From Bilabrum cf. latius (Eukaryota), in contig OZ237753.1 of NCBI GenBank assembly GCA_965178125.1, positions 1,054,001 through 1,099,322 on the forward strand: DNA of 45,322 nucleotides, in the 5' to 3' direction. The first letter of the stretch is position 1; every line of letters starts with the position of its first letter. This document shows, piece after piece, positions 1,371 to 26,760 of the stretch. Below the pieces are notes generated by a model, which was not told where the DNA came from, did no database searches, and saw only the letters and a list, made by a program, of their open reading frames with translations. Both the position numbers and the translations under genes were made by a program.

Positions 1371-2813
1371 ATGAAGATCACTATACGGCCATTTCTAGCG
1401 ACTGGTACCGCGCCAGCAGTATCGCTGGACGTTGATAGGCTCTCCACGACAGAAGACTTGCTTGTCGCTCTAGAGCGAAAGATCGGCATCTCCCGATGCC
1501 AAGGGCAATTAAAGACAGCAGAGGGCATGTTGATGCTTCCCGGCTCAACATGCGAACACTGCTGTCTCTCCAAAGGGGGTGAGCTGCAGGTCTCGCTGCG
1601 GTGTCCGTCGTTGCGTTCATCAGACCTGTCTCGGTAGCTTGTTGAGGTCACGCCGGTGCACTTGTCCAAACATGTTGATCCCGATTTGAAGCACGGTGTT
1701 AGGCTATCGCTAGGCTCCACCATACGGCCAGCCGACGGCTTACTATCCTGCCTCGGAGGCAAGGCGAGTGCTGCGCCGAACCCCACTGCCAGTGGCAGCA
1801 AGCTCCGACTCGTGCACTGCCCTGCAGGAGGGATGCCCCGCGAGGTGGAGTGCTCTTTGTCGTATGACAAGTTCTCGCGCACCATTGTGCTAAGACCCAC
1901 CTCGGCGCTCTCTTCGTTCCAGCGGTATCGTGTGCAAGCTATGGAAGGGGCCTTCGCTCGGATCCCGCAGGCAGGTCGAAGGCGAGGCGGGGTCGCTCCA
2001 GGCAAGTCAGCAGGCACTGCCTACTGGTGGTCGGATTTCTAGACTTGTGGACCCCCCTTGCACTGCCATATGATGGTGCCCACAGCGTGTGCAGGAGGCG
2101 AAGGCAGCCTCAAGGCAGTCCCCATGGACCTCTCACACGGGATCCGCACCCTGCCAGAGTTCAAGAGGGTCGTGGTCCGCAGGTACGTGCAGCACCTGCG
2201 AAGGGTCTTGCCTGGATACCTCAGGCAGGGCGTCCTACCGCCCGGTTGCAACGCTGCCCGAGGGAAGCTCGCTTCCTTGCTGGCCCACGCGAGATCGACG
2301 CTGCCGGTGCTTTCTATCGACAGTGGCAGTAGCCGCGATGGTGCTCATGAAAGCCGCACCCCGGACATGCCGGACGCAGGGCTAGAGAGGGGTGAAGATG
2401 CACCAGGCAGGCAATTGAGCTGTGATTATGCAGCAGGGATTGCAGCTTCTAGTGCTAAATCTAGCAGAAGGGCAAAACTGCCAGCAGATGTCCCAATGGA
2501 AAGGGGGTCCAAAGAGCCCACAGATCGACCAGCGGCAGGGGTGACAAGATCTAGCACACTAAAGCACGCTAGGACGACCGGATGCATGACAAAGATTGCT
2601 TCCGAGTGTGCGGCTCCCGTCCTCCCGTCGGCAACCGCTGCTGTCTCGCTGGGCATGCCAACGCCAGACTGCTGCACAGTGCTGGTAGGCGAGTCCACGT
2701 CCACGCCACGAACTTCTCGAGCAAAACTGTACTCCGCTAAGGCTGCCATGCAGCTGGTGAGTGGTCGTGTTGTGTTTGTTGAACATCCGCGATGGCCAGA
2801 CGGTTCGGCTTGA
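1371..2813 (+). CDS. Hypothetical protein, possibly with a ubiquitin-like N-terminus; might be spliced to the downstream TTL ORF
   Basis: Track ORFs 1371-1637, 1656-2042 and 2058-2813 share one frame and are separated only by TAG (1635, 2040); ends TGA. Confidence 0.55.
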
Positions 2814-5164
2814 ATGGCGAGACTGAGCCCGGCTTGATCCAGGATTTACTAGTACAGGTCCATGCTGAGCTTTCTGTGGTGACTGCCAGTGATTGCAGCA
2901 GCACCGCCGGCGTGACGGCATGTCCGGTGCAGTTCCGGTTTACGAGCGCACCTAGGCCTACCGTGCTGCAGCGAATCAGGTCAGCTTTTCGAACCATTAT
3001 GGATACCGAGGAAGCTTCAAATCTTCGACATTTGGGTGGTTATGTCCGGAGCCCCATGCCACTCCACATGGAGCGCCACACTGAAGAAATGAAGTCGCGG
3101 CATCTATATCGAACCCTGCCTGCGGATGACGGATGCTTCCTTCAAATTGCCCCGCAGAGGCATGTCCGCACATCAAGAATGATAGAATAGAGTTGCTTAG
3201 GCAGCACTCTGCTCGGTCATGGTGTAATTTCAAATAAAGCTCGACTATAGCAGCTTCTCTGCACTCGCGAAATTGAAAAAAAGAAACTAGATGCTGTCCT
3301 GCAAATCGGCTCAGTGAAGCGCAAATTTGGGAGAATTGTGGCGAGTGATCATGATGGTCAATATGATATAGCAATTCATTCCGCAATGCCAGGTGAACTG
3401 TTGAAACTTGCTAGTGGTGTTGTCGAACAAGAACCAATTACGTTCAAGTGCAAGTCGGGTTCTGACAATACCCCGGAAGCCACATTTCGCGATATATAGG
3501 GGGCACTGCAGCGCATGAAAGAAGTGGAAAGAGTGTTGGCACGGCCCGTTTCATGGATCTGCAAGCATGCGCGTCAAAATAACGCATTTGCAGTTCGGTT
3601 GCTGCCGCGAGCCGCGAGCCACCCATCGTGTTTGTCCGACTTGTGTGATGCTGTAGGGGTAGTGCCACAGCTTCTATCTGCTAGTACTGATGCGGTATCA
3701 GGCGGAATTGCTGATGCTGGCGGGGTCCTGCAGTGCAGTAGCGCACCAACGGTTGAGTAGGCTGCAGCGCCGGGAGCCGCCGGGGGACGCGCAGGTTCGG
3801 CTCGCAGCAGCACTCGTCATGCAACGCAGTCAGTACCAGACGAATGGATTGTAGAGCCATACCTGGACCGTCCAATGCTATTGCAGTTTCATACAAGCAG
3901 TCCTGGGTCGACAAAGAGCTCTAAGACTCACCCGATAGCTGCAGCCTCGCACAGCCCACTGCGAAGCGCAGAAGCGGCTATCGGAACCAAGGAGGGATCC
4001 ATTTTGCCGGCCTGCAAGTTCACAATCAGGGTGAACGTCATGGTGGTGGGTCGCACCGCCGTGCTGGTCCACGGCGAGCCCATCCTGCATTGCGCCACGC
4101 AGGCATACCGGGAGCCGGACCCGAACCCTCGTTCGATGACAGGGGGCGAGGCCGATAGCGCCGGTGATACTGCTGCAAAACCAGCCCATAGGACAACAAC
4201 AGCGAGGCGAGCACACATTACGAACCACAGTGAGCGGCATGGAGACGCGAAGTACAACAGGCTGCAGCACACCCAGAGCCTAGGGGAGGCCATCCGAAGG
4301 GCAAGGCTTGGCCAGATGCGCCTGTGCGATCACAGCGGCAAAGCCATTTCGCCTGATGGTCTGCTGTGGAAAGACAGCTTGTCAGTCTCGCGATCTGGGG
4401 TAGAGGGTGTTGCTGAGAGACGCGAACACGGCGGCGGGTGCGGAGCTGGGCCACTAGCGGCAAAGCGATCAATAAGCAAGGAAGTCCTGGAATGTCCCCT
4501 GTTCTTGGAAATTTGCTTGTGTGCGCAAGAAGTAATGAACGCTGCAATGTACAGGGGTCTGCCTAAGGGCGGCCGCTTGATGCCGTGCCCCTCTGGCTTC
4601 GAGGTGTTCGGTCTCGATTTCCTCCTGCAGAGCGACCTTCCAGAGCAGGCTCCTTCCCGCAGTTGCCCAGCCTCCACGTTCATAACCCCTCCTTGGCGAA
4701 TCGCGTTACTGGAGTGCAACGAAGGGCCCGCTTTAGGTGCGCTAGCTAGGCCTGATCTGTGCAAGGCTATCATCAGCGACATGTGGGTTGCCTGCGTGGA
4801 TCCAGTGTTGGCTGCAGCGGTTCATCTCGCTCGGGTGGTGGAGACCAAGGACTCCGATGCCGACATCCACGTCAAAGTTGCAGCTAGTTCGGCCGAGCCG
4901 ATGCCTGCAGCAGCTGCGAGCAAAACGAAGAGCGAGACTAGTGCACGGCTCGAGCAGAGCACGCCTGCGGCGCGTGCGCTTGCAGAGCATTGCCCCGAGG
5001 TCTACGGAACCCTAGAGGATGGGTAGGGCTGGCCTGCACCAGTTCGAGGGACTGCTTTCTGTGTGGTATCGAGGGAATACGGTTCAGTGCCCTCGCGGCT
5101 GGCTCTGTGCGCAGCAACGATCATGCGAGCGCGCGAGGCAGCCGATGCTGCTGACTCAGATTGA
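2792..5164 (+). CDS. Tubulin-tyrosine ligase (TTL/TTLL) family ATP-grasp protein; start uncertain
   Basis: One frame through TAGs at 3188, 3248, 3497, 3758 and 5024 to TGA 5162-5164; motifs ISNKARL, WIVEPYLDRPMLL, KFTIRVNVMV, HITNHS, FEVFGLDFLL, LLECNEGP. Confidence 0.8.
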
Positions 5165-5330: not shown

Positions 5331-7283
5331 TTAATCCCAGCCCTTCAACCATCGCCGCCTCGCGTGGTCATCGTGACTTGCCTCGAGGCAGTACACCCAA
5401 GGCGCGAAGTGCAGCCAAACGAGAAGGACGCCCAAGGTGAGATACTTGGTGACCCGCGGCGCGAACTGGTTGCACAACCGATCCACAAGAACCCCGAAGA
5501 TAAGCTCGCCGTAAAGGAGAGCAGGCATGTAGTGGTAGATGAATGCCGAACGGCTCACCAGGATGTACGGGAGGAGGTTGCACAGGTACACCAGGCACAG
5601 GTAGGTGACTATGCGCATGGTGGCTCCCCAGGAGCGAGGCAGGCGCAGCTCGGAGTCATGGCGGTATCGGCAGTACACGAACGCGAACCCGAACGCCACA
5701 CACACTCCGACTAGGATGAGCCAGATAACAGCAGGGTTTCCCAGCAGGTACACGAGCCGCTGCGTCTTCTTCACGCGGTCGACGTCCTCTGAAAAGTAGA
5801 GCAAGCCCCTCAGGTTGAGGGGCCAGGACCACCACTTGCTCATCCAGTGGTGAGGGGTGTCGATGCGGGCGTTCGCAGACAGCATCTCGTTGTTGAGCTG
5901 CCAGAAACTCGTCAAGAACCCCTGCTTGGGTGCATTGGCGTCGTAGTACTGGTTCCCCTCGAGGTTGCGCTGGAACTCGATCCTCATGAAGCCGTCGCCG
6001 TCGCCCGACAGGGGGAGAAGTTTGAAATGCCACCAGAACCAGTACGTGTAGATGGCGATGGCGCTCATGCCCATGACCAGCAGGTCAAGCAAGGCCACTG
6101 CCTCGCGCAGGAAGTACAGGCCGAACGCACACTCGAGCGCGATCATCCCGGGCGTTGCCAGCGCAGTCCACTTGATGCTCACCGCGCACCCGCACGCCAA
6201 GCCGAGCACCACTGCCCAGCGCATCCGCTCCCAGAACGACATGGTGCGCAGGGGAGCCGTGCTCCCTGCGTTGTCGACGATCTCACTCGCCACCTTGGTC
6301 TCGGAAGCGGCCAGCGGGTTCTTGAAGGTGCACGTTGCCCGCCAGCCAAGAGACCCGTACCCAGCCTGCGAGAGGCCCTTGCAGCGCTCATTGTCGTACT
6401 CGTCGAACACAAGGTCGTATTTGCTCAGCAGCGGCACCACCACGCGGTCCGCCATCGCAGAGGCGAGCTGAGCGGAGCCCGAGTTGCGGCCGCCATCCTT
6501 GTTGACAGCCGAGCTGACCTCGGCTTGCAACTTCTTCTGCCGCACCTCTGTCAGCTGCAGCAACTTGGCATCCTCGTGCTCGCGGCGACGCTAGAAATAG
6601 CACAGACCAATCCAGAGCGACAACACCGAGTAGAAGATCAGCTGGGAGTCCACCAGGATCAAGCGGCTCTCGATCAGATTCAAGTTGTCGAGGAGGAAAA
6701 AGGTTGTGACAAGAATGCTTGCCCAAACTGAGCAGCCCAGCCGCCGCGCAACGGAGTAAATAAAAGGCACAGTTGCGCAGCCAAATGATGCAGCCGCTAC
6801 TCGCAGTGGCATGAACTTGCAATCCGGGCCGTACTTGTAGTGAATGTGATCGTACCCGCATTTCTCAGCATCGTAACCCACAAGCCACCCCGCAAAGAGC
6901 AGGGTCAGCTTTCCTGCGATACAACATGAAAACATGAAACATACAATATTCACAGTCGCAATTTCTGACCGACTCCGGCAAAAGTTGCGAAGCTACAGCT
7001 GCACAGCTTGAAACTGCCGCTGCATCTCACCAAGAGGCGGGTGAATATCGAACAAGTACTTGCCCCGCATGTACTTCTGCACAAAATTTCCAAAATGGAA
7101 TTCATCAAATACAACAGCTGGGGGCTCCCTCAGCCTCCAAAAGCGCGTCGCCACCCCCAGGATGAACAGGATGAGCGGGGCCACGAACTCTGGCAGCCCA
7201 AAAACCGAGTTTTGGGGCAGTTCTTTGCGCTGGGCCCGAGCTTTGGCATTTTTATCGTCTGGGTCATAACCAGAGGGGGGCAT
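5331..7283 (-). CDS. PMT: Dolichyl-phosphate-mannose:protein O-mannosyltransferase (PMT, GT39), lacking the MIR domain; intron 6914-7030
   Basis: VVFDEFHFGNF, FDIHPPLG|KL across a GT-AG intron, ESRLILVDSQLIF, GLACGCAVSIKW, YLLGNP, FIYHYMPAL; in-frame TAG at 6591-6593; ends ...WLKGWD-TAA; start at 7283 is the most upstream in-frame ATG seen. Confidence 0.9.
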
Positions 7284-7424: not shown

Positions 7425-10400
7425 ATGTCCGGCAAGCGTCAGAGGCCCGAGAACATGAAAAGTACAGAATAGGTCTAGAAACGCCGGGTAGTATCCCTTA
7501 AATCAGGTGGAATGTAGCAGGAACCTGTGACAAGCCTTGCTTCTGTGAGTAGGAGCTGATAATCTCCCCTCCCAAATGAATTAGCGGGCCTCATGAAGTA
7601 ATGTTTCAGCATGATTGTTGTATCATATCGCAGGCCGATCCGTAGTCCTCCGCGTACGCCATGGCACAAAATCGAGCACTCTTTAGCGCAATTCATATGC
7701 ATAGGCTGGCAGCCGAAAGGTCGGGCCGAAGAGAAACCTGGTGGAAGCAAGTTTCTTGGAAGCTACTCAGCATTCTTGCGACCCAGACTGCCGTGCTAGA
7801 ATACGTGAGACTGAACCCATGTGACGGTCAACGATTTCCGGCTACACTTATGCAATTGCTCGCAAACAAGGAGCTTCAAGCGTCTCAATGTCCGCGCAGG
7901 TTAAGGGGGTTACGAGAGGTTCTGCTCGCCGTGCTGCAGGGCGTAGGTTACCGATACCGTCTAGCGGTGGAAGTGCAGCTATGCTCCAGAGCATCCTGCA
8001 AAGCTCACTCGGCCAAGGCCCGCCGCATGCTGCGCCTCTGCAGGTTCACGATATCGCGTCATCCATGATTCAGGACTAGGGTACAGGAAACTCCTCCAGC
8101 AGCAGTGGCGCAGCGGCATCCTCTGCGCAAGCAGACGTCGCGGAGCCGATGCAAGCTGTTCTGGAGGGCGTTTCGGCAGAAAGCGCCAGTCCTGCTGATC
8201 AGGATGAAGACGACGCCAAGATTAGCGCTGAATCCTTCGATAAACAAAGCGCTTCAAATGGTGGCTCTGACCCATTCCTGTGGCTTCGCAAGGACGACCA
8301 GATCGGCAAGCTGGGCCGCGCCCTGCAGCGCAGACTCAGGCGCATGGGGAGGCGCACGCCTGCAGGCGAGGGGCCGGGAGTCGCGGTCAGTGCGGTCCTG
8401 CACGCGGGCGCGAGTACAGCTGCCGAGTTGCTGGGCGTATCAGAGCTTGCTGGCGGCGGCAGCGCGTCGAACTCGGCCACCTCGACTAGCAGCGGTTCCG
8501 GTGCAGGGGAGGGAGCCGGCCATGCATTCGATGCAGCTCTAACGCGCTAGGCAGTGGCGGGGCTTTGCCTCAGCGCCGCCTCCCTAGCCCATGAGCTGGA
8601 GGGGGAGCGAGCTGCGAGGGCCGCCCTGGAGCGAGCCCTGGACCGAATCGAGTATGACCAGCCTGGCGTGTCGGTGGCTGCTGCCTCCATCGCACCGCCT
8701 CGCGAGTGGAACAATACTGGCAAGGTGCCCCGGCAGCTCGAAATAGAGCGAATTGAGGCAGCCCGTAAGGCTATCGTCGCGTCGGATTCCGGTAGCGCGG
8801 GCGAAGAGCCGCAAGTAGCCACCGGTGCCGGACAGTCCGGGGCGCAAGATCCGCAAGCGCTTGCCCGGGATGATGAAGCTGACCCGACCGAGATGCGCGA
8901 GCTGCGATAGTCTGTCTAGGAGCACGAGGCTGAGTCTTTGCGTTTGAAAGAGGAAATTGAGGAGTTGCGCCGCCAAGTGACAACTGGGGAGGAGCGCGTG
9001 ATTGAGCTATAGGAGGACGCGGCTCTGCAGAAGTAGCTGGCCGATGGTCGGCTGCAGGAGAGTCGTGACTTGCGAGATAGGTTGCGGGGTCTGGAGGAGG
9101 AGCTCCGGAAGCTGCGGGTCGTGGAGGTTCCCGAGACCGCCGTCCGGTCCCATCCACTGTTCAAGGCTGATGCCCTCAAGCTGGCCGAATCGCAGTCGTA
9201 GCTTAAGTCAGTCCGCGCCAGTCACGCTGCCCTCTCCCAGCAGCTCGAAGATTGGAACCGCGCGTCTGGTTCACTGCTCTAGCAGGTGCAGGATGGCCTT
9301 GCTTCCCATGACTCCAAGCTGCAGGAAGCATTGCAGTCCCTGCAAGCGCAAGTATCCGGCCTGCAGCGGGAGCGAGCAGTAGCCCAATCGCGCGTTGCAG
9401 AGCTTGAGGCGTAGTTGTAGACCGCCTCGCAGTCCATCGCACTGGCAGAGAAACGGTCGAATGCGTGCAAGCAGGTGCAGGATAGAGCTATAGATGTGGC
9501 AGGAAGGTTGCAGACAATGATGCAACGGCTGCGAGAGCCGCAAGAGGTGCTCCGAAAGCAGCTGGCAGAAGCTCTCGAGAAGCAGCCAGAAGGCGGGACA
9601 GATGCCACTGCAGCAGGAGCTCCTGCTGAATCGCCAGCAATGCAGGCAGTTCGGGGGGAGTTGGGTGCTGCTTAGGCGAACGTGGAGGCGCTCACCGAGA
9701 TGATCGAATCCACCCAGCAAGACTACATCAATGTCGAGACACAGTGCTCTGCATTGCGGAAGCAGCTCACCGAGGAGCAGGGGCGGCGGGCCGCGCTCCA
9801 GAAAATTGCTGCCGTCGCTTCGCAAGAGGCCAAGCAAGCCAAGGACGCGCTTGAGGCGCAAGAAATGGAGAACGGCTAGGTGCGAGGGGCGTTGTAGCAG
9901 GCCGATGCGGCCGTTCAGGCGGCTGCTAGGACTGCAAGCGAGGCACAGCAGCTGGCTCGTGCCGAGGCGGCAGGAAGAGCAGCTCTTGCCTCGGAGTTAG
10001 ACGGGGCAAGAGAAGCCATCAAATCCCTGCAGAGAATAGCTCAGTCGGCTGGTTCACACTCAGCTAAGCCGGATAGCAAAAGTCACGGGTCTGCGCCCCA
10101 GGCAGAGCTGCGGGAGAAGCTTGTGGCCGCGTGCAAGGCAGAAAAGCATGCCAGGGATGCACGCGATGCCGCAGATGCGAGCACCTCAAAGCTGAGAGAG
10201 CAAGCCAAGCGCGATGCTGCTGCTAGTCGCAAGGAAATCCGTCGATTGCAGAAGGCCAATGAGCGCCTAGCTGCTGCCGCCGCTGCCAGTCGCGGCAAGA
10301 GCGCAGGCAGCGGCAGTGCAGGGGCGGCCTCGGGCGGGGCATCCGACGAAGCTCGGGCTAGGCTGCTTGCCAAGTACAAGCGGGTGCTCCGGTGCCCGGT

Positions 10401-10572
10401 CCGCACCGACCGCTTCAAGGACGCGGTGCTGTCGACTTGCTGGCACTGCTTCAGCGAGGAGGCGCTACAGGACCTAATCAAGCAACGCAAGCGCAGCTGC
10501 CCGTCTTGTGGGAAGCGCTTTGGTGCAGGGGATGTGCACAAGATCTTCATGACCGAGGCTGATGTGTCGTGA
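7425..10572 (+). CDS. BRE1: BRE1/RNF20-like coiled-coil E3 ubiquitin ligase with C-terminal RING; introns 7545-7633 and 7805-7899
   Basis: Long coiled-coil frame with 17 in-frame TAG and no TAA/TGA until TGA 10570; C-terminal LRCPV..KDAVLSTCWHCF..KRSCPSCGKRFGAGDVHKIFM matches the BRE1 RING pattern; introns are phase-compatible GTGAG...CAG. Confidence 0.8.
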
Positions 10573-10648: not shown

Positions 10649-11950
10649 TCACATGAAGCCATCGTCAGACCCAGCATCACCGCCACAAGCCTCACCGTCT
10701 GACTCGCTGCTGATGTCACCGAACTCTGCGCCCACGTCGGCAGTCAAGGCAACGGCAGGTGCCTGTGATGTCTTCGCGGCTGGCTTGCCTCCTTCTGAGT
10801 CGCTCCCAAACAGGCTGTCTTCGTCGTCTCCTTTCTTCGTCGAAGCACTACTGATGGCTTGGCCCGCACGAGTCGTCTCGACCTTTGACGCTGGGTCTGC
10901 CTTCGAGGCAGCAGTTGATCCCTTCTTGCCGCTTGCCGCCTTACCTCGCCGCTGGCGGTCCTATTTCTTGTCTTTCTTGCCGGCTTTTCCCGCCCCGTCC
11001 GACTTTTTCCCTGCCTTTCTCCTCTCGCGCCTGTCTCTGGCCCTCGCCCTGCGCTCCTCTTTGGACAGGCTCGACGTGCCCACGGCTGCCACATGGCCAC
11101 TAGACCCCGACCCTGCCCCACCAGCTGCTGCGCCACCAGCTGCGGCAGATTCCGCTTCATCAATGCTGCCCACACCCTTCTCGTGCCCCGCCATGATCTC
11201 GTCCTCGTCGAACAGGCCGTCGAAGCTGTGCAGCTTGGCGAGCCTCTCCCGCTCTTCCTACTCGGCTCGAGCAGCCTCTAGCGCACTCTTACGCTCTTGC
11301 TTGGATAGCTTGCGCTCACGGTCGTCGCGTTCAATTCGTAGCTTGCGATAGTCGGGAGTTTCGTCGCCGGATTTGGTCCTCAAGATTCGCCGGAGCACCG
11401 CCTTGTCCTTGCTCACTGTCCTGTACGTGCATTTGCGCATGTCGTGGAACCCAATCGTCCCAACATCCATAGATGTCTTGTCTTTGCGTAAGTTCTCCCA
11501 AGGTGTAAATACTACTTTTACTGACCCCTGCTTGCACCCCTCGATCGAGTTCTCCTTGACAAGCTGGCAGCACTCTTCCATTGATGCCTCTGGCACATCA
11601 ACCAATGTCTCTCCCTGTGGCGCTAGCAACGACGTGCAGGGAAATTTAGTGGCATACATAACATGTCACGTTACGGCAGGGACGGCAAAGCCAATGGCAC
11701 TTACTCGATTTAGCCGAATGTACACGTGAGCGGAAGACAAATTATCTACGTGGAACCAGTAATCTTCTGGCCACCCGTTCTCGATAAGCAACTCATTCTC
11801 GAACTTGTCCCGTCCCATGTACACAACATACCCGTCTGTGATAACCACGAAAGGGGGTTCTACAATCCAGTAATCACTTGCGCAGAGTCTTGCAAGAGAA
11901 GTGATAGGTCAAACATGATAATACTCACCCGATGTCTTGAACCAAAACAT
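10649..11950 (-). CDS. CCDC25: CCDC25/Jlp2-like NFACT-R (DUF814) protein; introns 11836-11928 and 11615-11704
   Basis: [80 protein letters not shown]; the family-type DDGFM-TGA terminus is reached only through TAGs at 11258 and 10961. Confidence 0.9.
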
Positions 11951-15353: not shown

Positions 15354-18300
15354 TCACTTCATAGGCTTAGGCGTGCCGCAGTGCTACACTGGTGGCAGCA
15401 CGGTGTGGCTTAGAGTACGCTCTACGCCACCGCTGGTTTGCACACGAACGCCCACCCAATCCACGACCTTATACACCTTTGGCTAATCCTGCAGCGCGAT
15501 ATCCTGCTCATCGCTACCAGAGCTATCATGGATAACTTCTGGCATGGTTGAGACGGCAGTTGCAGGCCCTCCTTGCTACATCCCCATCTCGAGGCCCAGC
15601 GGCACCTCTGCTGGGGCAGTAGATACTGCATCCCAACGACCACAGCACCCACACGACACGAAGTACAGGAACCTGTCCCAGCATCCAGGCTCCCCGTCTA
15701 CTCCCGAGGCATGCCTCCCAGATCCAGCTCGATACCCGCCGCTTGCAGCAGCTGATTCTGCGTGCTGGGCTTGTGGTGGTGGGGAACCTGCGACGAGACG
15801 GCCCGGGGGTTCGTCGACCTGCCCATCAACCTGCCCGTTGATCTGCCCTGGCAGCAAACCGATCCCAACCCCCTGTGAGTCCACTGGTACCCGATGCAAC
15901 GATGCTTCTATCGCATGCTGGCCGACTTGAAGCTGAGCCGCAAGCTGCGGCCTTGTCGTTTCCGCACCCCCAGCATGCCGTCTCTTCCTGGCATGCGGTC
16001 CTGTGAGGTGCAGATCGTCCAACGCGGTGGTGGTGGTGGTGGTGGTGGTGGCTGTTTCTCCTTCTGCGCGCGGCCCTGTCTCTACCTGTGCTCCTGAATT
16101 GCCTCGTCCGCTCATTTTTTCATCGATTCCAGTCCACACTTCCGGACAGTTGGCCAGCGTGCCGTACCGCGACAGCCAGTCTGCAAGGCGGTCCGCCGAC
16201 AGTACAGCCCGCTGCTCGTCCATGCCAGCGCTAGCATCGGTTGCTGTGCAATCTGCTGAGGCAGCTCCAGCCACTCGCTTTAGTTCCCGCTCGATGCGTT
16301 GCAACTCGCCCACCAACGGCAGCTGGGTGCGACTGAGACGCGTGTGATCAACCTCAATCGGTGCATGGCAGCCGGCAAGCAGAACCGGGTGCTACGGTGG
16401 ATCTGCACACTACGCTCCGTCTCTCGAGTGCGGTGTTGGCCAGGCCCACTCGATGGCAGTCACGTTCTCTCCGCATGTCACGCCGTGAACTACCGGGGCG
16501 CAGGACTGCCCAGCAGCGTGAATCTCGAATGGCCGTGAGTATGCCTCCGCGGCCCCGCACTGCAGATGCAGGCGCACTGGTCTCTTAATGCGCAAAACAG
16601 TATCTGATTCCTCCCGGCCCGTCGGTGCGTCCATTTCTGCTGCATCCACATCGCCTGGGTTAACCATCGTGCGCAGCCATCCGGGCGACCCAAGCCGAGG
16701 CAACTTGGACGATGTGGTTCCCCACACATACAGGTCCCCGCTCGCAGACACCGCAGCAGAATGGTGTGTTGATGTACTCATGTCAACGATCCGGACCGGG
16801 GGCCCTTCTGAGCTGCCTCCGCCGAGAATGTGCATCGGAACACGCTGACGCCCAGCCCCCATCCGCTCCCTCTCGTGCGAACCACTGCGAGCTACTGTGT
16901 CGCCTATTCGTTCGTCATCGCTGGATGCTCCGAGTGTGGCAGCTTGGTGCGACTCCTGTGGGACAGCTCCCGTGGCTCGGATACCCCAAGCAAACAGTCT
17001 GCCGGTGTCGTCGAGGGCGAGCGTGTGGGTTGGGCCGCAGCACACTTTCCTCACTTTGGGAGACCCACTGCCTGTACGATCTGCACCGGCTGCAGCCTCC
17101 ACTAGCGGTAGCTCAACCCGATGGGGAGTCATCGTGTTGATATCCCGCCCATCATCCGTTGTAAAGCACAGAGTGCCATCCATATTGCTGCCCCACGTGT
17201 ACAGCCGCCCATCCCGTGTCACGCATGCTGCGTGCACCCGGCCCATCGAGGCTTGCACAACAGCACAACCCTCCTCCATGCCCCCGCCTGCATGCACATT
17301 GACTTCCTCCAGCCGCTTCACGCTCCTCACATCAGTGCTTAGGCCGAGCTAGCCGTGGCTATTGCGGCCGGCAGCAAACAGTCGGCCGCCCCGCGTCCAG
17401 ACGAGGCTCGAAGCTGGCCCGCAGGACACGCCGACCGCCCGCAAGGAAGGATCATCGGGGACCCCCTCGGCCCACGCGCAAGACTTCCGAGTACCGCCCG
17501 CTCCACCCAGCGCCCGAGGCCCCCACTCCACGGCCACGTCGACAGCAGCAGCTCCTTCGCTCTACGTGCAGCCCTCTTGATCGATCGGGGCTGCAGCATC
17601 GGCGCTGCCGGCAGCCTGGCCGCCCCGACGAGCCGCCTCTACGCGCTCGGAACGATCAAGTCGGCTGCGCTTAAAGAATCGCGCGGAAGGCACCACCGCA
17701 GGAGTGATCACTCGGCCCCCAGTGTCCATGCCCATCGCGCCGTCTCGGGATCGGCCCCAGGCCCATAGTCGGCCCAGACGGTCTGTTGCAAGGGTGTACT
17801 CGTGTCCACAGGATACAGATGTAAAACCGACCGGTTGGGAAACCTGGGCAGCTACAATCTACGGAAAGCAGGCGGTACGGACTGGCGGGCTCGCCAGGCT
17901 GTCTCCAACAGGGCCGTCGCTCGAAGCTTCTGTGGGAACCGCAAGTAGGCGCTCGAGCTACTGCCTATTGATACTCAATTGCTTGAACACGTGAGAGACT
18001 CCGTCTCCCAGTTGCCCGTTTAATCCATTCCCACAGCAATACAGACTACCGCCTGCGTCTTCACTGCCACCCGAATGAATCTATCCGCCTGAACCAGGCT
18101 GATTTAATGTCGAGAGAACCAACAAAGCAGAATGGTTGAGGCCAATCTCAACCTAAATTCTTTGGCGGCGCGCATCACCACTGGCAGCAGCTGCGTCGGT
18201 TGCTCTTGAGTTGCCTTGATTGTCTTGCCGCACCTATAGCCAGCCAGGAGGCGCTGTCACTGGACATGGTACGCTACATGGTAGACCAGTTCCAATGATG

Positions 18301-18461
18301 TCACTTTGCGCACCAACAGAGCTCAAGAAGGAGCTACACGGCCTGGTTTCTGCGGGTCCATGCGCCAACCAAGAAACTGCAATGTCCTCGGTAGAATCAT
18401 TTTTTCGTACAAAAGAGAAACCAAATCGTAAATAGTCAATTCTTTCTAAATCCGCTTCCAT
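15354..18461 (-). CDS. RCC1-repeat (RLD) beta-propeller protein with a C-terminal extension
   Basis: Repeats GSLYCCGNGLNGQLG, VSCGHEYTLA..GRLWAWG, GRLFAAGRNSHG-TAG-LG, GRLYTWGSNMDGTL, VCCGPTHTLALDDTGRLFAWG, GDLYVWG in one frame crossing multiple TAGs; ends TGA 15354-15356. Confidence 0.82.
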
Positions 18462-18748
18462 AAGCTCTAGATCTTTCAGGTCGGGCCTCTATAGTACATA
18501 TCGAATCCATCGGTGCGCCGGTTGCAACCACTTATCTGCTTGAGCTTGATGAAGATGAATGCAACAAACATCAACTCACAACTTCAACTGTTACCTCCTG
18601 CTCAAGCTCCTTAGAGAAGCATATTAGTCGCGTTGGTGGATCCATCATGTAGCGTAAGTGCAAGAAATTGAGCATCTTTCATCCATTCCTGCCTGCAGGC
18701 GAATCAAGATGCCCCAGCTTGCTATTGCACCCAGTTGGCAAGATTGAA

Positions 18749-20715
18749 ATGTATCTCCAACTGGCACCGGTCCGCGCAGAGAACTCATCCACGTTGGAAG
18801 CTGCATTAGCAATGGCTTTACAAGAAGGTTCCGGCACGGGTGCCACATCTGGTCGAGGTGGTGCCATGAGCAGCTCGCATGCTACCGCTGCAACTGCGAA
18901 TGATGCAGCAAGCACATTGGCGTAGCAGCTCGTGGCTGGCAGGCAATTGCTTTCGGTGAGTCCTTCCCATACAGGTATACGAAGCCTTGAATGCAATCGA
19001 GCACAACTTTACCGTCTGTATGGATGCCTCTCACGCCGCAGTCTAGTGCACCTGCAAACAGCTTGGCGCCTGCGGATACTACGGACCGAACTGGTCGTCT
19101 GGGCCAGAGCAGTACGGGTGCATATATGAACACAGTGCCGCCTATTGCTGCGCAGATGCCCAACTAGGCTGCGACAACCAACCAAGCAACTGCGCGTGGA
19201 GGCGCAGGGTCATCGGCAGCCACCGCACCATTTCAAGGCGGAATACGGGCAAGTGGCTCCTCTGCACGAGCTGTTTCCACAGGGCGGCCTGCTTCCATAT
19301 TTACCGGCGGCGGTGCCATATCAGCGAGTCCGTCTGCAATGGTGGCGCCGAACGTGGCAGGCTCCCCGGGTGTGCAGCTCTCCGGTAGAGGTGGGCGAGT
19401 AGAGTCCTGGTCAGGGACGACGCACCGACCACTAATCGGGCAGGCTTCATTGGGCCCGTCTGAGAGTGGGCCCAGATCCACTGCTGCCCCGGGCCTTCCA
19501 TTGCGAGGATCTCGCCAGTCCTCGCGAAGGACCAGTCGAGCCTCCAAGCAGGCGCAGCAGCAACAACAGCAACGGCAGGCAAGGGGTGCGAGCCAGACAG
19601 CTTCCCGCGCGCCCGCCCATGCAGACGTAGGCACGCGGACACCCCGATCTACCGCGGGTGCAGCCGGATCCAGCACCGGTGCCAAGCCGATGACCGGTGC
19701 CCCGTCCTCCTCCTCGTCGACCTCGTCCACCGCCAGGCACCCTCCCGCTCAGGGACCGGACTAGCACGCACATGCGGGGCTTGCGACAGCCAGCACAATG
19801 CACTCCACCCAATTTCGACTGACTGCCCCGCAACTTGCTTCGCCTGCTGGACAGACTGGCATGCAAGGCCAATTCGGGCTGCAGCCGCTGGCCAGCTCTG
19901 CCTCGCTGCCACCTGGCCCGGCACGTGAGGCTCTGAAGCAACTCGAGGCGAGCGAAATCGAAAGACAGCGCAAGGAGGACCGCCGAAAACGCATGCAGCA
20001 GGTCGCCGCTAAGCACATGGAGAAGGCCCGGCCCACTGCGGTAGGTCCCGCCGGTGTGCTGGCCATGCACCTCAGCAAGCGGCTAGTGAAGAGATAGAAG
20101 GACTCCGAGAGCCAAGCGGCGCAGCGTGCAATCGATAGGTTACGTTAGATGGAGCAGGATGGATTTGGCCTGCAGCAGGTTTTGCGAAAACTGGTCGAGA
20201 GCGGGTGCATGGACGCAGCCAGCCGGGTGTGCGTTCAGCTCGGTGTGCGCAAGAGTGAGACCCGTAAAATCGAGAGAGAGGCCGTGGACGCGGCTCGCAG
20301 TGCCTCCGCAGGCTCTGATGGAGCAAAACTGGATGCTGCAGACGCCGCGGGCGATACCAAGCCAGCCAGCGGAGAAAAGGGCAGCAGCAGCAGCAGCAGC
20401 AGCCAGCAGGGCCAGTCTCCAGAGAGCTCAGAGGCTTACCGCGCCGCATACATTAAGGCAGCCAGGTAGAGAATCGAGCAGCTACTATCCGATGAAGCTG
20501 CCGATGCAGTCATGGACAAGGAACCCCCTATCCTGCCTGAGCTGCCGGAGGGCGCGTAGGAAGTGGCACCGACCTGGCTGGCGGGGGCGTCCGTGCTGCC
20601 TCTCAAGCACATCCTGGTGCTGGTGGCTCGAATGGCGCAAGCTGCTGTTGCCGCTCTTCCATAGGAACCAACAGCCGACGCTGACAACGGCTCGCGGGCT
20701 GAAACATCGGACTGA
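18749..20715 (+). CDS. Hypothetical Ala/Ser/Gln-rich protein; probable intron 18956-19041; start uncertain
   Basis: Track ORFs 19339-19764, 19798-20097 and 20149-20469 form one frame joined by TAGs, ending TGA 20713-20715; a phase-compatible GTGAGT...CAG intron links the upstream exon. Confidence 0.55.
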
Positions 20716-20841: not shown

Positions 20842-21482
20842 TTACGATGACGCGGCTGCCTCGGAGGCGCCCCCAGCAAACAGGTACGAGTACTTGTCGG
20901 ATGCCAACTGCACGAGCCCGTTGTAGCTCTCCATGTCAAGCTTGGTGCCCCATTGGCTTGACGCCTGCTCCTCAACAGAACCGTCTGCAGATGCGGTACC
21001 GATGATCTCTACGATTGAATCTCTGCGAAAGACGGTTGGAAACTCTGGGCGGCAATCGAATCGATTCGGCAGCAAAAAATCCGTCTTGCAGCCGTTCTAC
21101 ATGCGACGCCTCACGCTGGAAAAATTGATGTTGACTACGTCTTTACATTTACATCTTGGCCGTCCTGCACAGCTTGAAAAGAGACGCTGGGGTGCGATTT
21201 TCGAGCTGTCACATTTGCTCGTGGTGCAACTCAGCTTGTGCAAGTCGATCTCACGGAAGCCTACAGTACTGCTTGTCCAGCTTCAGATGACCTAACTTTC
21301 CCAACCAAAATTACGGGCTTGCCAGCGAATGCAGCCACCATGCTCCCGTTCACGCGAGGAGCGCCAGGAAAATCAACCTGCGCAGTGTTGAGAGACGATG
21401 AAACGTACTACACCAAACACTTTGCGATTTTAGCGTAGAAATAGGTATCATAATCAAATATATTGCTGCATACCTCCACCAT
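20842..21482 (-). CDS. RPA3: Replication protein A 14-kDa subunit (RPA3), about 3 introns
   Basis: APRVNGSMVAAFAGKPVILVGKV, VL-TAG-AS|DGQDVNV, IVEIIGT, LDMESYNGLVQL fit the RPA3 OB-fold pattern; ends TAA 20842-20844; exon borders partly approximate. Confidence 0.75.
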
Positions 21483-21669
21483 AGTAGTTTGAAGTGCCGG
21501 AAAGAGTGGCGATTGTCCGCAAGAGAATTCAAACTAGAGCGACGTGGTGTGATGAGTAGCTCGGATTGTGCATTCAAAATGTCAAAAACAAGTTGTGGCT
21601 GGCGTGGTGGCTGGCTGGAGGCAGCATGCATTGCGGGAACAGCGCCACAAACTTGTCCAATTGCATGCA

Positions 21670-24600
21670 TCACACAGGCGGCAGGGAGCTGCCATCCTTC
21701 TTCTCGGCCAGATTTCTCCCCGGTCGCTATCCAGTGGCTGGGGATGCACTTCCCGGAGGGGCCCGTGGTCCGGCCCTACCGGAGCCAGCGGCAGGCAGCG
21801 GACTGGCACCCCTGCTTCCAGGGCCGTACGAACCCGACTCAGCCCGCGAGGCGCCGTCCCTGTCCATGCTGGCGCCCGACTGAGTCACTGGACGGTTGAA
21901 CACCTGCCCGTTAGGAAGCCGCTTGGTCTCGGCCATGACTGTCTTGGACTCGTCGCCCTGCTGCAGCAGCAGCCTTACCCGCGATGGAGTCTGTTGCGCA
22001 GGGAACTGCCCGGTCGGGAGGTGCTGCGGGGGCGGTTCCACCATGGGGTCGATCACCGTGCTGCAGGACAGGCACCTCATGTCCCTAATCGGCTTCCCGG
22101 CGAAGAAGGCCCAGTCGCTCTCTCCCTACTTGCCCTTGAGCTAACTTAGCTCCTGCTGCAGCCGCCGCAGCATCCTCGACAGCTGCGACACCTCGGTACG
22201 GTCCGCCTTGGACCGCACGTCTCCCTCGTGCGCGAGCCCGTGCAGCCCCTCCCGATCCACTTTGCTCTCGATGGCGCCCCACAGCCGCTCCAGCTCCTCG
22301 TCATCCACCGGAGAGGCCGCCGCCGAGGAGCTCGCCGCAGGCCCACCCGCCCCTCCCGCCAGTGACGAGTTTGCGAGGTTGGTCATCTGCTCGCGGAGAG
22401 CGGAGGACTCGTCGGACAGCTTCTGCTCAGCGCCAGCTGCGCGATCCTGCGCCTCGCGTGCCGTGCGCAGTGCATCTGCGAGCTCCGCGTGATCTGCCTT
22501 GTGGCGGGCTCGAGGGGCTGCCGTCTCGAGCAAAGCCTACAGGCCCTGCATGGCACCCTCAACGCTGCTGGAGGGATTCACGCCGGACCCGCCTCCTTGC
22601 TTCCCACCCTCAGCGGCCCCCGTAGCACCTGCGAGCCCGTCCGTCTCTGCATTCGCCTAATCCCGCTCGCTCGCTGCCTACGACACCTGCTTGGCCTGCT
22701 CGAAGGCACCCTTCCACTCGCGGGTGGCCTCGCCCACCTGGTCCTCGGGAACCCCTGCCATGCGGGCTGCCTGCGCGCCCACCTCGGAGAGCGCCCGGCC
22801 AAGCGCGGCTTCGGCCGTTTCAAGACCGGCCACGCGGCTGGCAATCGCATGCACACGCCCGGCAAGCCGAGCGTGCGACTCACCGCCCGCGCCGCCGTTC
22901 GAGCCATCTCCGGCGGCGCCTTCCTCCAGTCGCGCCACCCGCCTCCCAAGCGCGTCAACGTCCGACGACGCCTGGCCCGCCTTGTCGCTTGCAGATCGCG
23001 CGGCATCGGCCGCCTGCGAAGAGGCCCGGTCGGCCCTGTCCGCCTTGGCCCTGATATCTGCCAGCGAGGCACGAAGCTCGTCCAGCCCTGAGCTGTCCCC
23101 CCTGCTGCGCGTGGGCAGCTGTGCCTGGCCTGGGCTCGCAACCCCAGAACCATCGTTACCACCGGAACTGTCCCGCTGGTTGCTTTTGAATGCATCGAGC
23201 GCCTACCGCAGAGCTCTGACGTCCTCCACGCACCTGCCTGCCTCTTCCTTCGCCTCACGGGCCACTCGCAGGGCTTCGCCTGCGTCTGCCGAGGAACCGC
23301 CTTCGCTCTTTTCCGTGGCGCTGGGCACTCGCTGCCGAGCGTCTCTCTCAAGAGCATCCATCCTTCGTTCCAGTGCTTGCAGCCTGCTAGCAGCTGCAAC
23401 GGCCCCTGCATCCCTCGAGGGCGCAACGGCGGAGGCGGAGGAATTGCTGCCATCGGAGCCAGCCGAACCATCGGCCCCCGTGGCCTGGATCTGGGTCTCG
23501 AGCGTCTCCAGTCTAGACTCGGCAGCACGCAGCCTCTCCTTCAGCGCATCTGCGTCCTTCCTTGCAGCCCCCGCGGCCTCATTCGCCTCCCGCAGCTTCT
23601 CGAGCGCCTCGGCGCCCACACCGGCCTCCTCTCGAGCTGCCTCCTCGCTCGAAGGTTCGGCACCCCCATCCCCATCCCCATCCCCCACACTGGCACCATG
23701 GTCTTCCACACTCGCACCAGCCCCAGCCCCCGCAGCCTCCAGCTCGCTGACCCTGGACCTGAGGCCCTTCACGAGCCGCTCCAGCACCTTGATGCGGCCA
23801 AGCACGCTGCCAGCCGAGGCAGGCCGGTCCATGCTCGAATGAGAACCGCGAGACTCCCGACCACTAGGCAGATCAAGGGTCATTCCATCGCCCCCTGCCC
23901 CGCCCAGGTCCCGCAGATCCACTCGCATCCTCCGCCGGTCGTCTCCTGGCTCCCCGACACCCCCCTAGGCCTAGTCAGACGCGCCCCCGTCCGCGCCTGC
24001 CTCGCCATCGCCGCCCCTCGCTGCTCCTCCTTCTGCATCCAGGCCCGTACCACCGCTTGCTTCAACAACAGCAGATCGCTCCAACTGCTCTGCGGCTGCC
24101 TGCAGACCGTCTTTGCCGCCCTTGCCACCTTTGCCCGGCGCGTCGCCAGCAGCGCCTGCATCGGCCCCTTCGCCATGCCTGTCCGCCGCCTCCTTGCTCT
24201 CACCTGCCCCCGAGCCAGCAGCACCATCCTAACCTGCAGAATCCGACTTTGCAGTGGGTCCACGGGCCCTCGGGGTGAAGGCGCTGGGGGTCGCCTGGCC
24301 ACTGGCCGACGCAGCTACCGAATCGGGGCCCTGTGGCACCCCGAATATCACCCGCTCCGAGTCAGAAATTCGCTGCAACACGTCATCCATAGGCGACGCT
24401 GCTAGGCGGATGCCATCTACACCTGTCGCATCACCAGCAACTCCGGGTTCATGATCGGCATCCGTCTGCTGCACCTTGGCTTCGCGTGACGACCTGCGGT
24501 TCGGTGGGAGCAGCGTGATGGAGTTTGCACCCGGCAATATCGAATTCGAAGCATGGATAAAATAATTACGCTGCCTTCATATCAAAGACGGGTGGAACAA

Positions 24601-24906
24601 AACCAAGTGCCCACGTGGACTACAGCTCCCAAGGCTGCACACCGACAGGTGCTGGGTCCCTTCAACATTGCAGCTCTCATTTGCTGCACCCATTACACCG
24701 AACCAGAAGGTGCATGCCGTATTGCACTGCCAAAAAATATCTCACAGTTTTGGGCAGCCTGGGGTGTTATCAAGTCGGTCCTTTTGGTCCTTCACTTGCT
24801 GCAGCAGTTTCGCAAGGATCGCCTTCAGGGGATCGTAGGACAGCAGAGAGTTCAGATCAAACTCTTGTTCCTGTGGACTGGTGTCATCAACTTTCTACTC
24901 TGACAT
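21670..24906 (-). CDS. Long coiled-coil protein with a DUF4795-like (QRICH2/C16orf96-type) C-terminal CLSC motif; 5' exon structure uncertain
   Basis: One frame from ~24537 to TGA 21670-21672 through many TAGs; KADRTEV...AFFAGKPIRDMRCLSC; probable first exon MSE-TAG-KVDD...FDLNSLLSYDPLKAILAKLL from 24906. Confidence 0.6.
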
Positions 24907-25054
24907 ATCTCGCACAGTTGCTTGAAACAACCTCCTAGGTCTGCAAAGAGCCAATACACCAAAAATATTTCCGCTGAGGATTTTGCGCGGCGCCACTGGA
25001 ACCACGGCCGGTTCCGCAAGCAGAAAAAAAATCACATTCTTGCAGAGCATTCCA

Positions 25055-26760
25055 ATGCCAAAGCGTTTCTCAGGCAATGATCTAGGAGGCTTATCGTTTA
25101 CTTCGTCAGAAAGGTGAGTGCTGTGACAAACTGCGCATACTACACGAAATAATGTTGATCCTCAATATTTCCGGAGTAGTCTTCGCGTTCGATTGATCAT
25201 CTATTTTTGCGCAGCAAAACCGGATTAAAGCGACCGAGTCAAAAGGGTGGTGGTCCACCTAAGCGAGCATTTAGGTACCGAGCCGGCAAGGTCCCTGATT
25301 GGGCGCAACAGGACACTGTAGGGCTTGCGGGGCAGGCTTCGAAGCCCCCCACACTACCGGAACAGCGCTCGAAATTGCCTCCACGTCAGAGTCCCGACCA
25401 GTCGTCTACTTAGAGTACAGCATAGGGTCAAGTTGATCTTGAACCCGTGGGAGGTGTGGCCGAGTATACGTCGGAGAGAGGTGGTGTAAGTATCCCAGGC
25501 GAACGCTCCCCCCCGCAAGTACAGCAGTCTCCCCACTCACACCCTTCGGCAGTGCCTTAGAATCAATCAAATATAGACTCAGAGACGAGTACGAGCAGCC
25601 CGGATCCCGACTCAGATGATAATGGCACCAGTTCATCCGATGACGAAGCCGACGAGCTGGCTGCCCGTCGAGCGAGGATACTGGCAAGAAAGTAGGCGGC
25701 AGTAGCTGGACTTGTTCCAGCGTCTAGCCACGTGTTAGCATCAGCGACTCATTCGCCTGGTCCGTCCACTGCAGCAGCGGCTGCATCAGGGACACGAGCT
25801 GACACTCGACGTGCCACGGACCGGGAGCACCTGTCGCCCAGCTCTAGCAGCGGCGACAGCAGCGGGTCTGATAGCGATAGTGATAGCGATAGTGATAGTG
25901 ATAGTGATAGTGATAGTGATAGTGATAGTGAAAATGAGAGCAGGATGGCCTTTGGTCGGTTCCGCCGCCGACGCGACAGGTCCACAGTGAGGGAGCGGGA
26001 GGCCGAGGCGGCCCTGGAGGAAGCCCGGGCAGCGGCTGCGGCTGAACTGCAGGCGGAGCGCAAGTAGCGCAGCAAGCGTCTCGTTGCGCAGAGGCTAAGA
26101 GAGGAGGAGGAGGCCGCCGCCGCCGCTGCTAAGGCATCAGCCACTGCTGCCCATGGTCGGCCGGATGACACGGACCTCCCCCAGGAGGAGGAGGCTGACT
26201 TCGAGAGGTGGAGGGTGAGGGAGCTCCAGAGGGCGGTGAAGGACTGGAGGGAGAGACATGGTACCGGAAGATCTAGTGAAGCCGATGTAGCAGATCCAAA
26301 TATTAATGCCAGGGGGGGGGCGAACAACAACCGCACTGGCCCTGGTCCTGCATCTGGCTCTGGTTCAGGCCCTGGCAGGCCATCGAGAGGGTTCATGCAG
26401 AAGTACTACCACCGCGGTGCTTTCTACATGGACGATGACTCGGTTGCATAGGACCCTAGCGACGTGAGGCACAAGGCCAGCGAGTATGCAGCCGGGCGCA
26501 CTGGCTAGGACCTAGGCATGAACAAGGTGCTTATGCCCAAGATGATGCAGGTCAGGGACTTTGGCAGGAGGAGCCGCAGCAAATGGACACACCTTTCGAA
26601 CGAAGACACATCGGCAGAGGGCGAGCGCTTGCGAGCTCGACTAGCCCAGCGAATGGCGGATGATGCCAAGCAGGGACTTGCATCCCAGTCCATCCACGTG
26701 CGACGTGCTGCCGAGACGGCCATAGAAGAGGCAGAGACCCGTCGATCTGGCCGTGGGTGA
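25055..26760 (+). CDS. MFAP1: MFAP1/Spp381 spliceosomal B-complex protein; intron 25114-25214; last gene before the telomeric region
   Basis: RYRAGKVPDWA, DDTD..EEEADFERWRVRELQR, FMQKYYHRGAFY, NKVLMPKMMQVRDFGRRSRSKWTHLSNEDT; 7 in-frame TAGs (25411, 25423, 25558, 25693, 26065, 26449, 26506); ends TGA. Confidence 0.9.
25870..25930 (+). repeat. (GATAGY)n coding microsatellite giving a (DS)n tract in MFAP1
   Basis: About 10 tandem GATAGC/GATAGT units. Confidence 0.85.

Follow-up and report, generated by a model that had tools for sequence, protein, structure and literature searches.

Probable use of UAG as a sense codon, most likely for glutamine, with UAA and UGA retained as terminators in a gene-dense chromosome end

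The genes of the window analysed here (the whole stretch of DNA, 45,322 nucleotides long) carry TAG in frame as sense, an observation that is real and confirmed, and we consider it highly probable that the code is one in which UAG is a sense codon, most likely for glutamine, and UAA and UGA still terminate, a pattern which we take to be NCBI table 15. The window is a real new case of the rare UAG-only code type, otherwise reported in few eukaryote lineages. The entire data set is one 27-kb gene-bearing stretch, for which 13 gene models were spliced from joints in RNA-type contigs; their 7,923 codons include 73 in-frame TAG, 0 TAA and 0 TGA, the two zero counts being circular with the ORF definition, and independent support from domains, spliced contigs and family C-termini therefore matters. 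Reading TAG as sense is the sole way in which ORFs of 330–1,057 amino acids stay open. Off frame, these coding sequences contain 66 TAA and 287 TGA in 15,846 codons (two frames combined), a rate that predicts ~33 and ~144 in frame where none of either is observed; in-frame TAG (73) is nearly equal to its off-frame expectation of 77. It accounts for 0.92% of codons and, should it encode Gln, makes up ~18% of the codons for that residue.

Domains flank TAGs on either side in five families (PMT, MFAP1, RCC1, NFACT-R and Rep_fac-A_3 in Pfam). The protein O-mannosyltransferase PMT (5331..7283, minus strand, intron 6913–7029) matches Pfam PMT and PMT_4TMC, has one TAG at 6591–6593 and ends in WD-TAA at 5331–5333; its intron joint occurs in runs X5, X6 and X7. 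The raw PMT ORF contains a second TAG, which lies within this 117-nt intron. CCDC25, with its NFACT-R domain (10649..11950, minus strand, introns ~11615–11704 and ~11836–11928; 2 TAG, ending in TGA), matches Pfam NFACT-R_1 and CCDC25 in the PDB (E 9e-19), and the spliceosome-associated MFAP1 (25055..26760, plus strand, intron ~25112–25212; 7 TAG, ending in TGA) matches Pfam MFAP1 (E 1.3e-36) and human MFAP1 in the PDB (E 1.3e-20). The RCC1-repeat protein g7 (15354..18461, minus strand; 12 TAG, ending in TGA) matches Pfam WD40_RLD, RCC1 and RCC1_2, and a contig covers 15301–18479 with 0 differences. RPA3, replication factor A subunit 3 (20842..21353, minus strand, introns 21023–21114 and ~21165–21254; 2 TAG, with a TAA-TGA end), matches positions 60–100 of 105 in Pfam Rep_fac-A_3 (E 5e-7); its start codon was not found. 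The 3' end of RPC1, the RNA polymerase III largest subunit (1..1119, plus strand), has 0 TAG, ends in TGA and matches Pfam RNA_pol_Rpb1_5 over positions 168–266 of 267 (E 6.9e-21).

All but one of the remaining models end in TGA. A BRE1-like RING coiled-coil protein (7425..10572, plus strand, introns 7545–7633 and 7805–7899) contains 17 TAG and has weak RING-type Pfam matches, below the cut-off; a 3,006-nt spliced contig spans 7410–10599 with 0 differences. The label TTL given previously to g2 (2792..5164, plus strand; 5 TAG) was not confirmed, with no Pfam match at E<=1 and no PDB match for the C-terminal 451 residues, and its C-terminus is 52% identical (97/188) to that of the environmental relative L001. 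The same holds for the label ERICH2-like, attached to a small acidic ORF (12027..12446, plus strand; 1 TAG, ending in TAA at 12444–12446) which has no Pfam match at E<=1 and is covered by no listed RNA contig piece. Three proteins are of unknown family: g1 (1371..2813, plus strand; 2 TAG), which has no significant Pfam match; g6 (12549..15215, minus strand; 5 TAG), spanned from 12442 to 15153 by an RNA-type contig with 0 differences; and g8 (18647..20715, plus strand, introns 18654–18779 and 18955–19040; 9 TAG). The second codon of g8 is a TAG. The coiled-coil protein g9 (21670..24906, minus strand, intron ~24492–24743) has 10 TAG, or 11 if it starts at ATG 24904–24906, and a weak match to DUF4795, below the cut-off. 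The per-gene TAG counts of the preliminary description were reproduced exactly (BRE1-like 17, MFAP1 7, g2 5, CCDC25 2, PMT 1).

The same description had looked to spliced mRNA for persistence of TAG, and this was borne out. In runs X5, X6 and X7, from two studies, the contigs lack eleven GT..AG introns yet carry the TAGs unchanged, with no base differences; in run X1 (DNA-type) the introns are unspliced. The run type labels are guesses (X5 'RNA? (probably DNA)', X6 and X7 'RNA?'), and it is the splicing of their contigs that points to RNA in these three runs. Comparison with contigs covered 6800–26799, where at least 55 of the 65 TAG codons lie inside listed contig pieces with 0 base differences, although contigs omit rare variants and partial editing could escape notice. 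TAG is kept in the spliced mRNA-type contigs of at least seven genes.

UGA is the main terminator (10 of the 13 genes) and UAA a minor one (3 of 13); in agreement with the earlier description, no model ends in TAG, and the TAA stops proposed earlier at 5331–5333 (PMT), 12444–12446 (the small acidic ORF) and 20842–20844 (RPA3) all stand. TAA is a genuine stop. Both TAA and TGA, which the reading frames lack, stand at C-termini conserved in the families. PMT ends ...RRRWLKGWD-TAA, which was previously judged a plausible family C-terminus and proves to be one: 47 of 60 homologues end in the same alignment column, 23 of the 60 end in WD, and the PMT of L001 also terminates WD-TAA. In RPA3, TAA is followed directly by TGA, 17 residues past the end of the Pfam match, the last matched profile position being 100 of 105.

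Glutamine is the best reading of TAG, judging from aligned sequences, in which close relatives exchange TAG for CAG, CAA and Q. Good alignment to close relatives surrounds only six non-shared TAG sites, a small sample, and four of these pair with CAG, CAA or Q: TAG in L001 lies opposite window CAG at PMT aa18 and aa69 and opposite window CAA at BRE1 aa52, and the MFAP1 relative P0195 (63% identical) has the Q of 'RTGQDLG' at a window TAG. The other two pair with Lys, at PMT aa382 (AAA; window versus L001) and g7 aa322 (K in P0391). TAG is common to the window and L001 at PMT aa192 and BRE1 aa44. The enrichment for Gln at TAG columns that was predicted at the outset is found against L001, where 3 of 6 non-shared L001 TAG sites face window Gln codons against a background of 3.1% (Fisher p=5e-4); equivalently, TAG faces 3 of 34 window Gln codons and 3 of 1,058 other residues (Fisher p=5e-4). 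In g7, the TAG at 17349–17351 (aa393) occupies the Q position of the RCC1 motif G-x-N-x-x-G-Q-L-G, read here as G-R-N-S-H-G-(TAG)-L-G, and in PDB alignments four repeats of RPGR and UVR8 have Q in this column and four of HERC2 have R. The ORF of P0391 stops exactly before this position.

It is possible, but unlikely, that TAG is sense for another amino acid, Lys being the strongest alternative, followed by Glu or Ser. The two well-aligned Lys partners favour this, as do two poorly aligned sites where window TAGs lie opposite Ser in L001 (Thr and His also occur opposite window TAGs in such context, and Asn opposite one L001 TAG), and UAG is known elsewhere as Ser, Leu, Glu or Lys (PMC11687900). 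Columns of distant homologues at TAG sites are polar and rich in K, R and E (K/R/Q/E, E/Q/K/R and E/D; MFAP1 column 432 has E 77, D 19 and Q 5 of 147), and the shared PMT TAG is Glu in L004, the nearest TAG-free relative (read by eye). Against this stand the four well-aligned sites with Gln codons or Q, and the RCC1 column, which in all eight aligned repeats is Q or R, with no K, E or S. There is no Q among the 40 partners of window Lys (all listed) and no K among at least 30 of the 34 partners of window Gln; with no Gln–Lys pair in either listing, a Lys reading needs more rare events than Gln. In close relatives TAG lies opposite Glu at no site. When residues are scored with an empirical substitution table built on these alignments, Gln ranks first, 3.5 bits over Ser, 5.2 over Glu and >15 over Lys, which falls outside the top eight residues.

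We consider very unlikely an ambiguous code whose reading depends on context, of the kind found in Condylostoma or Blastocrithidia, with UAG read as Gln internally and as a stop near some 3' ends. In g7, g8 and g9 a TAG lies 9–18 codons ahead of the final TGA, such that termination at the last TAG is possible in these three, and where the contigs end does not show which codon is the stop. However, at 0.92% usage ~2 of 13 genes are expected to have TAG in their last 20 codons, all 13 models have TGA or TAA near RNA-type contig ends (27–107 nt away in the five readable genes), and TAG is required as a stop in none of the models. Terminators in such codes (Condylostoma, Parduczia and Blastocrithidia type) also serve as in-frame sense codons, and TGA and TAA never do so here.

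Codes in which UAA and UAG both encode Gln (NCBI table 6 type) occur in many ciliates, hexamitin diplomonads and others, and there is only a slim chance that the window uses this ordinary code with TAA merely scarce in a GC-rich genome. UAG is Gln in these codes as here, TAA occurs less often than either of the other stop triplets (27.3 kb contain 96 on one strand and 107 on the other), and nuclear codes usually reassign UAA and UAG as a pair (PMC5304391). However, such codes have UAA in frame at Gln positions, and frequent in-frame TAA, named earlier as the sign of such a code, is absent from the window genes: 0 in 7,923 codons against ~29 expected from the observed CAA/CAG ratio of 0.40 (Poisson P(0)=2e-13) and ~33 from the off-frame rate. 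TAA instead terminates three of the 13 genes; in two organisms its position coincides exactly with the conserved end of PMT, and in RPA3 it stands directly before TGA. An artefact (unrecognised introns, RNA editing, pseudogenes or assembly errors) is the least probable explanation of all: the raw PMT ORF does contain one intronic TAG, but TAGs are retained with 0 differences over whole coding sequences in spliced contigs of three runs, L001 independently carries in-frame TAGs in the same genes and partly at the same codons, and the domains are intact.

Were UAG read as Gln, the decoding tRNA would be a tRNA-Gln(CUA), which a single mutation separates from tRNA-Gln(CUG) and which would read UAG and not UAA. 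The eRF1 N-domain would have come to recognise UAG poorly or not at all and would still recognise UAA and UGA. Both proposals follow PMC5304391 and PMC11687900. A tRNA-Gln(CUA) is known from organisms in which both UAA and UAG are Gln (PMC5304391). ARAGORN found no tRNA gene in the window or in L001–L006, and the eRF1 gene is not in the window.

A codon table identical to that of the window, with UAG alone reassigned to Gln and UAA and UGA as stops, is described for the fornicate Iotanema spirale (Metamonada), where a tRNA-Gln(CUA) was postulated (PMC5304391). An eRF1 T32G change has been reported for Iotanema. Set against Iotanema are the ~60% GC, TTAGGG telomeres and ~90-nt GT..AG introns of the window, and neither metamonads nor ciliates appear in the named entries of the 120 best matches to RPC1. 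The identical table also occurs in the ciliate Protocruzia tuzeti, with 316 in-frame TAG reported (PMC10089648), and in two phyllopharyngean lineages (PMC11687900). A ciliate origin of the window DNA is unlikely, because telomeres (phyllopharyngean CCCCAAA/GGGGTTT versus (TTAGGG)n), GC content (phyllopharyngean 27–54% versus ~60%), stop usage (UAA as main stop and UGA least used in those ciliates, versus TGA) and RPC1 matches differ. UAG is likewise uncoupled from UAA, which with UGA stays a stop, in the rhizarian exLh (UAG=Leu) and in Scotinosphaera (UAG=Ser), according to PMC11687900; in contrast, no TAG site here lies opposite Leu in a relative, and Ser is met only at the two poorly aligned sites.

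Nothing points to either a ciliate or a fornicate, and no report of a UAG-only Gln code outside these two groups was found in the literature searched. The RPC1 fragment is SAR-like, in a tree that does not itself resolve. L001, with 522 of 612 PMT residues identical and in-frame TAGs in the same genes, uses the same code on the evidence of its sequence, and the sources of P0391, P0195 and P0001 probably share it; the more distant L004 (49% PMT identity) has no sense TAG. From this RPC1 tree, the genome features and the lack of a matching report, the code may have arisen independently, and we lean slightly towards a further origin of UAG-only reassignment to Gln in an unsampled clade of GC-rich, compact-genome protists, possibly within SAR and neither ciliate nor metamonad, with several environmental members. 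If so, the absence of sense TAG from L004 would make the reassignment recent and phylogenetically bracketed, and the clade would offer a clean system for how eRF1 separates UAG from UAA, in which UGA, and not UAA, is the main terminator.

The long frames of the window are fragmented under the standard code, and with TAG read as a sense codon they become open reading frames of 330–1,057 aa, in which the Pfam domains PMT and PMT_4TMC, MFAP1, RCC1-like repeats, NFACT-R (CCDC25), Rep_fac-A_3 (RPA3) and RNA polymerase Rpb1 were found. Across 13 gene models (7,923 codons), built with introns taken from the joints of RNA-type contigs, TAG occurs in frame 73 times while TAA and TGA do not occur at all; ten models end in TGA, three in TAA and none in TAG. 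In the two remaining frames of these coding sequences (15,846 codons) there are 66 TAA and 287 TGA, from which approximately 33 TAA and 144 TGA would be predicted in the reading frame under neutrality; the 73 in-frame TAGs come near the 77 predicted from the off-frame rate. A preliminary description of this DNA, based on the sequence alone, had likewise stated that no model ends in TAG, and its counts of 17 TAGs in the BRE1-like gene (a RING coiled-coil protein), seven in MFAP1, five in g2, two in CCDC25 and one in the protein O-mannosyltransferase gene PMT were reproduced exactly, as were the coordinates of its three TAA stops in the rebuilt models. Its naming of gene model g2 as TTL found no backing, with no hit in either Pfam or PDB sequences. 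The first ATG of the g2 frame lies 22 nt ahead of the TGA of model g1 (2792–2813), such that the two models overlap, and it is possible that they form a single gene with an intron. In model g8 the second codon, directly behind the presumed start ATG, is TAG (18647–18652).

If TAA shared the meaning of TAG, approximately 29 in-frame TAA codons would be expected at the CAA/CAG ratio of 0.40, compared to none seen (Poisson P ~2e-13), which rules out the ordinary code with both UAA and UAG as glutamine for this stretch. The claim that UAA and UGA remain stops is upheld by the lack of either codon in frame and by the C-terminus of PMT, where ...HARRRWLKGWD is followed by TAA at a column in which 47 of 60 aligned homologues also end, with a WD ending in 23 of the 60. 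The RPA3 gene terminates shortly past the end of the Pfam profile, in TAA directly followed by TGA.

Contigs of four public sequencing runs were aligned to positions 6800–26799. Those of X5, X6 and X7, which come from two studies, contain 11 GT..AG joints, each skipping 86–252 nt and all within gene models; the DNA-like contigs of X1 run uninterrupted across the intron positions. The run labels for X5–X7 give RNA only as a guess (for X5, 'probably DNA') and no matching run is catalogued as RNA, but from the exact excision of 11 introns in seven genes we infer that these contigs are transcript-derived. One further joint (14253 to 19703), seen in X6 only, without GT..AG and with a side of 21 nt, was rejected as an intron and taken as a repeat artefact. 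No base differences or indels relative to the window are listed in any of the four runs, and contig pieces with zero differences span 7410–10599 (spliced), 10617–11613, 12442–15153, 15301–18479, 19041–20745, 21646–22282, 22339–23653 and 25902–26799. Of the 65 TAG codons in 6800–26799, at least 55 fall within these pieces, and the only TAG taken out by splicing is in the PMT intron. Complete removal of the TAGs by editing or by splicing, an alternative raised in the preliminary description, is therefore ruled out by the persistence of these codons in spliced contigs with zero differences; since contigs drop rare variants, such variants may still occur at TAG sites.

In the five genes that allowed a reading, the RNA-type contigs end 27–107 nt past the TGA, which suggests very short 3' UTRs, a weak hint only as contigs do not define RNA ends. 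The convergent stops of the BRE1-like and CCDC25 genes lie 76 nt apart (10572–10649), and their RNA-type contigs end at 10599 and 10617. A (GAC AGC)n-type repeat encoding Ser-Asp in MFAP1 (25884–25931) coincides with contig breaks in all four runs and with a spike in depth; the motif appears to be a genome-wide repeat.

Comparison with homologous sequences makes it very probable that TAG encodes glutamine. The main comparison is with L001, a metagenome contig of 4,062 bp whose PMT is 85% identical to that of the window (522/612) and which has the same gene order, with PMT neighbouring the BRE1-like gene and g2 in the same arrangement. In the codon alignment (codon numbers count TAG as sense), TAGs of L001 lie opposite window CAG at PMT aa18 and aa69 and opposite CAA at BRE1 aa52, with flank identity of 7–10/10 at these sites; TAG is common to both sequences at PMT aa192 and BRE1 aa44, and one L001 TAG lies opposite window AAA (Lys). 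Overall, three of 34 window Gln codons have TAG opposite them, compared to three among the 1,058 remaining aligned residues (Fisher p=5e-4). The conserved stretch RTG-x-DLG of MFAP1 has Q in the database protein fragment P0195 and TAG in the window, and aa322 of g7, an RCC1-repeat protein, is K in fragment P0391 and TAG in the window. Well-aligned sites with a TAG that is not shared number six, of which four have Gln and two Lys. In poorly aligned stretches the residues opposite window TAGs are Ser (twice), Thr and His, and Asn lies opposite one TAG of L001. A further TAG in g7, at aa393, falls at the Q position of G-R-N-S-H-G-x-L-G, a column occupied in PDB alignments by Q in four repeats of RPGR and UVR8 and by R in four of HERC2. 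At other TAG sites the columns of distant homologues are polar, of K/R/Q/E type; those for CCDC25, the TAG of the fragment of RPC1 (RNA polymerase III largest subunit) and RPA3 (the last judged by eye) are uninformative. An empirical likelihood over nine partner residues places Gln at the top, 3.5 bits over Ser and 5.2 over Glu.

The genes of L001 are likewise interrupted in frame by TAG and never by TAA or TGA, and its PMT also terminates in WD-TAA. Three database fragments, P0391 (126 aa, 83% identical to g7), P0195 (162 aa, 63% to MFAP1) and P0001 (374 aa, 78% to PMT), seem to result from gene prediction under the standard code in additional relatives; the last residue of P0391 is exactly one before the window TAG at g7 aa393. 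A metagenome scan with g7 gave 61 pattern matches, none of which was confirmed. A more distant contig from the same collection as L001, L004 (1–8139, 69.5% GC), has a PMT 49% identical to that of the window, and reading by eye its long ORFs (768, 489 and 380 aa) and the two ORF pieces with PMT, an estimated ~2,200 codons, revealed no in-frame TAG. L004 may be a standard-code outgroup to the organisms that read TAG as sense, and the lack of TAG in these frames is no more than suggestive of a code change confined to a subclade.

Positions 1–27,300 of the window, at ~55–69% GC, carry eukaryotic genes crowded on both strands, while 28,062–45,322 is a chromosome end or subtelomere, made up of roughly twelve (TTAGGG)n blocks (17–95 copies each), the final one reaching the window end, and, alternating with them, 155-bp satellite arrays (4–15 copies, 89–99% matches). 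Immediately behind the MFAP1 gene, and ahead of the first telomeric tract, lies a 54-bp tandem repeat (26877–27237; 6.7 copies, 92% matches). Positions 27238–28061 then hold an RPC1 gene fragment of ~770 bp, which covers Rpb1 domain 4 and the first part of domain 5 and has an open frame containing one TAG; a short (TTAGGG)-like tract (27238–27283) lies on one side of it and the first of the long telomeric blocks on the other. At the start of the window lies the terminal part of domain 5 from an RPC1 gene; the two RPC1 pieces do not overlap, and the fragment may be a captured duplicate. Protein clusters for RPC1 and PMT (P0084 and P0004) both have members on contigs of 188,598, 65,231 and 39,848 bp, thus the two genes seemingly share a contig in a more distant relative as they do here, which suggests that their linkage is conserved. 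Scans for tRNA genes in the window and in contigs L001–L006 found none, and an Rfam scan of the window at the gathering threshold gave no matches.

The best named matches of the RPC1 fragment are oomycetes, diatoms, a labyrinthulid, Blastocystis, Cantina and dinoflagellates, with amoebozoans, plants and insects also present; the best 120 matches include no ciliate or metamonad in their named rows. A quick tree search on the RPC1 mid-fragment (40 rows, 209 columns) gave no starred clade with the window, which fell in a group with Blastocystis, Cantina, three dinoflagellates and environmental sequences (SH-aLRT 90). The nearest named homologues of PMT are red algae. In excerpts of the literature, UAA and UAG are described as usually reassigned jointly (PMC5304391), with UAG alone encoding Gln in Iotanema spirale, Protocruzia tuzeti and two phyllopharyngean lineages (PMC11687900, PMC5304391, PMC10089648), Leu in the rhizarian exLh and Ser in Scotinosphaera (PMC11687900, PMC5304391). 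The window is a further member of this known but rare UAG-only=Gln type, and the split code originally proposed is confirmed as an observation and supported in its interpretation. It differs from phyllopharyngean ciliates, as excerpted sources describe them, in telomere repeat (TTAGGG compared to GGGGTTT), GC content (~60% compared to 27–54%) and dominant stop (TGA compared to UAA). Given these differences and the RPC1 matches listed, an independent origin is likely but not proven; the open full-text literature searched, supplements aside, yielded no UAG-only=Gln case beyond the ciliates and Iotanema, and an earlier report is possible.

Such a code could arise through a tRNA-Gln(CUA), one mutation removed from tRNA-Gln(CUG), which would decode UAG and not UAA, as excerpts of PMC5304391 report was demonstrated experimentally in Tetrahymena, together with an eRF1 that would have lost recognition of UAG and retained that of UAA and UGA; candidate eRF1 positions in the same source are T32G in Iotanema and L69A in exLh. 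As a GC-rich, non-ciliate case with public DNA and RNA-type data, this organism offers an independent replicate for the changes in eRF1 and in tRNA or GlnRS that uncouple UAG from UAA, and ideas of codon capture become testable where TGA, rather than TAA, is the dominant stop. The change may also be bracketed, since the code is present in close relatives and apparently absent from a more distant one. Standard-code gene calling shortens the proteins of this clade, and the right translation table is therefore needed for annotation and phylogenomics of the lineage.
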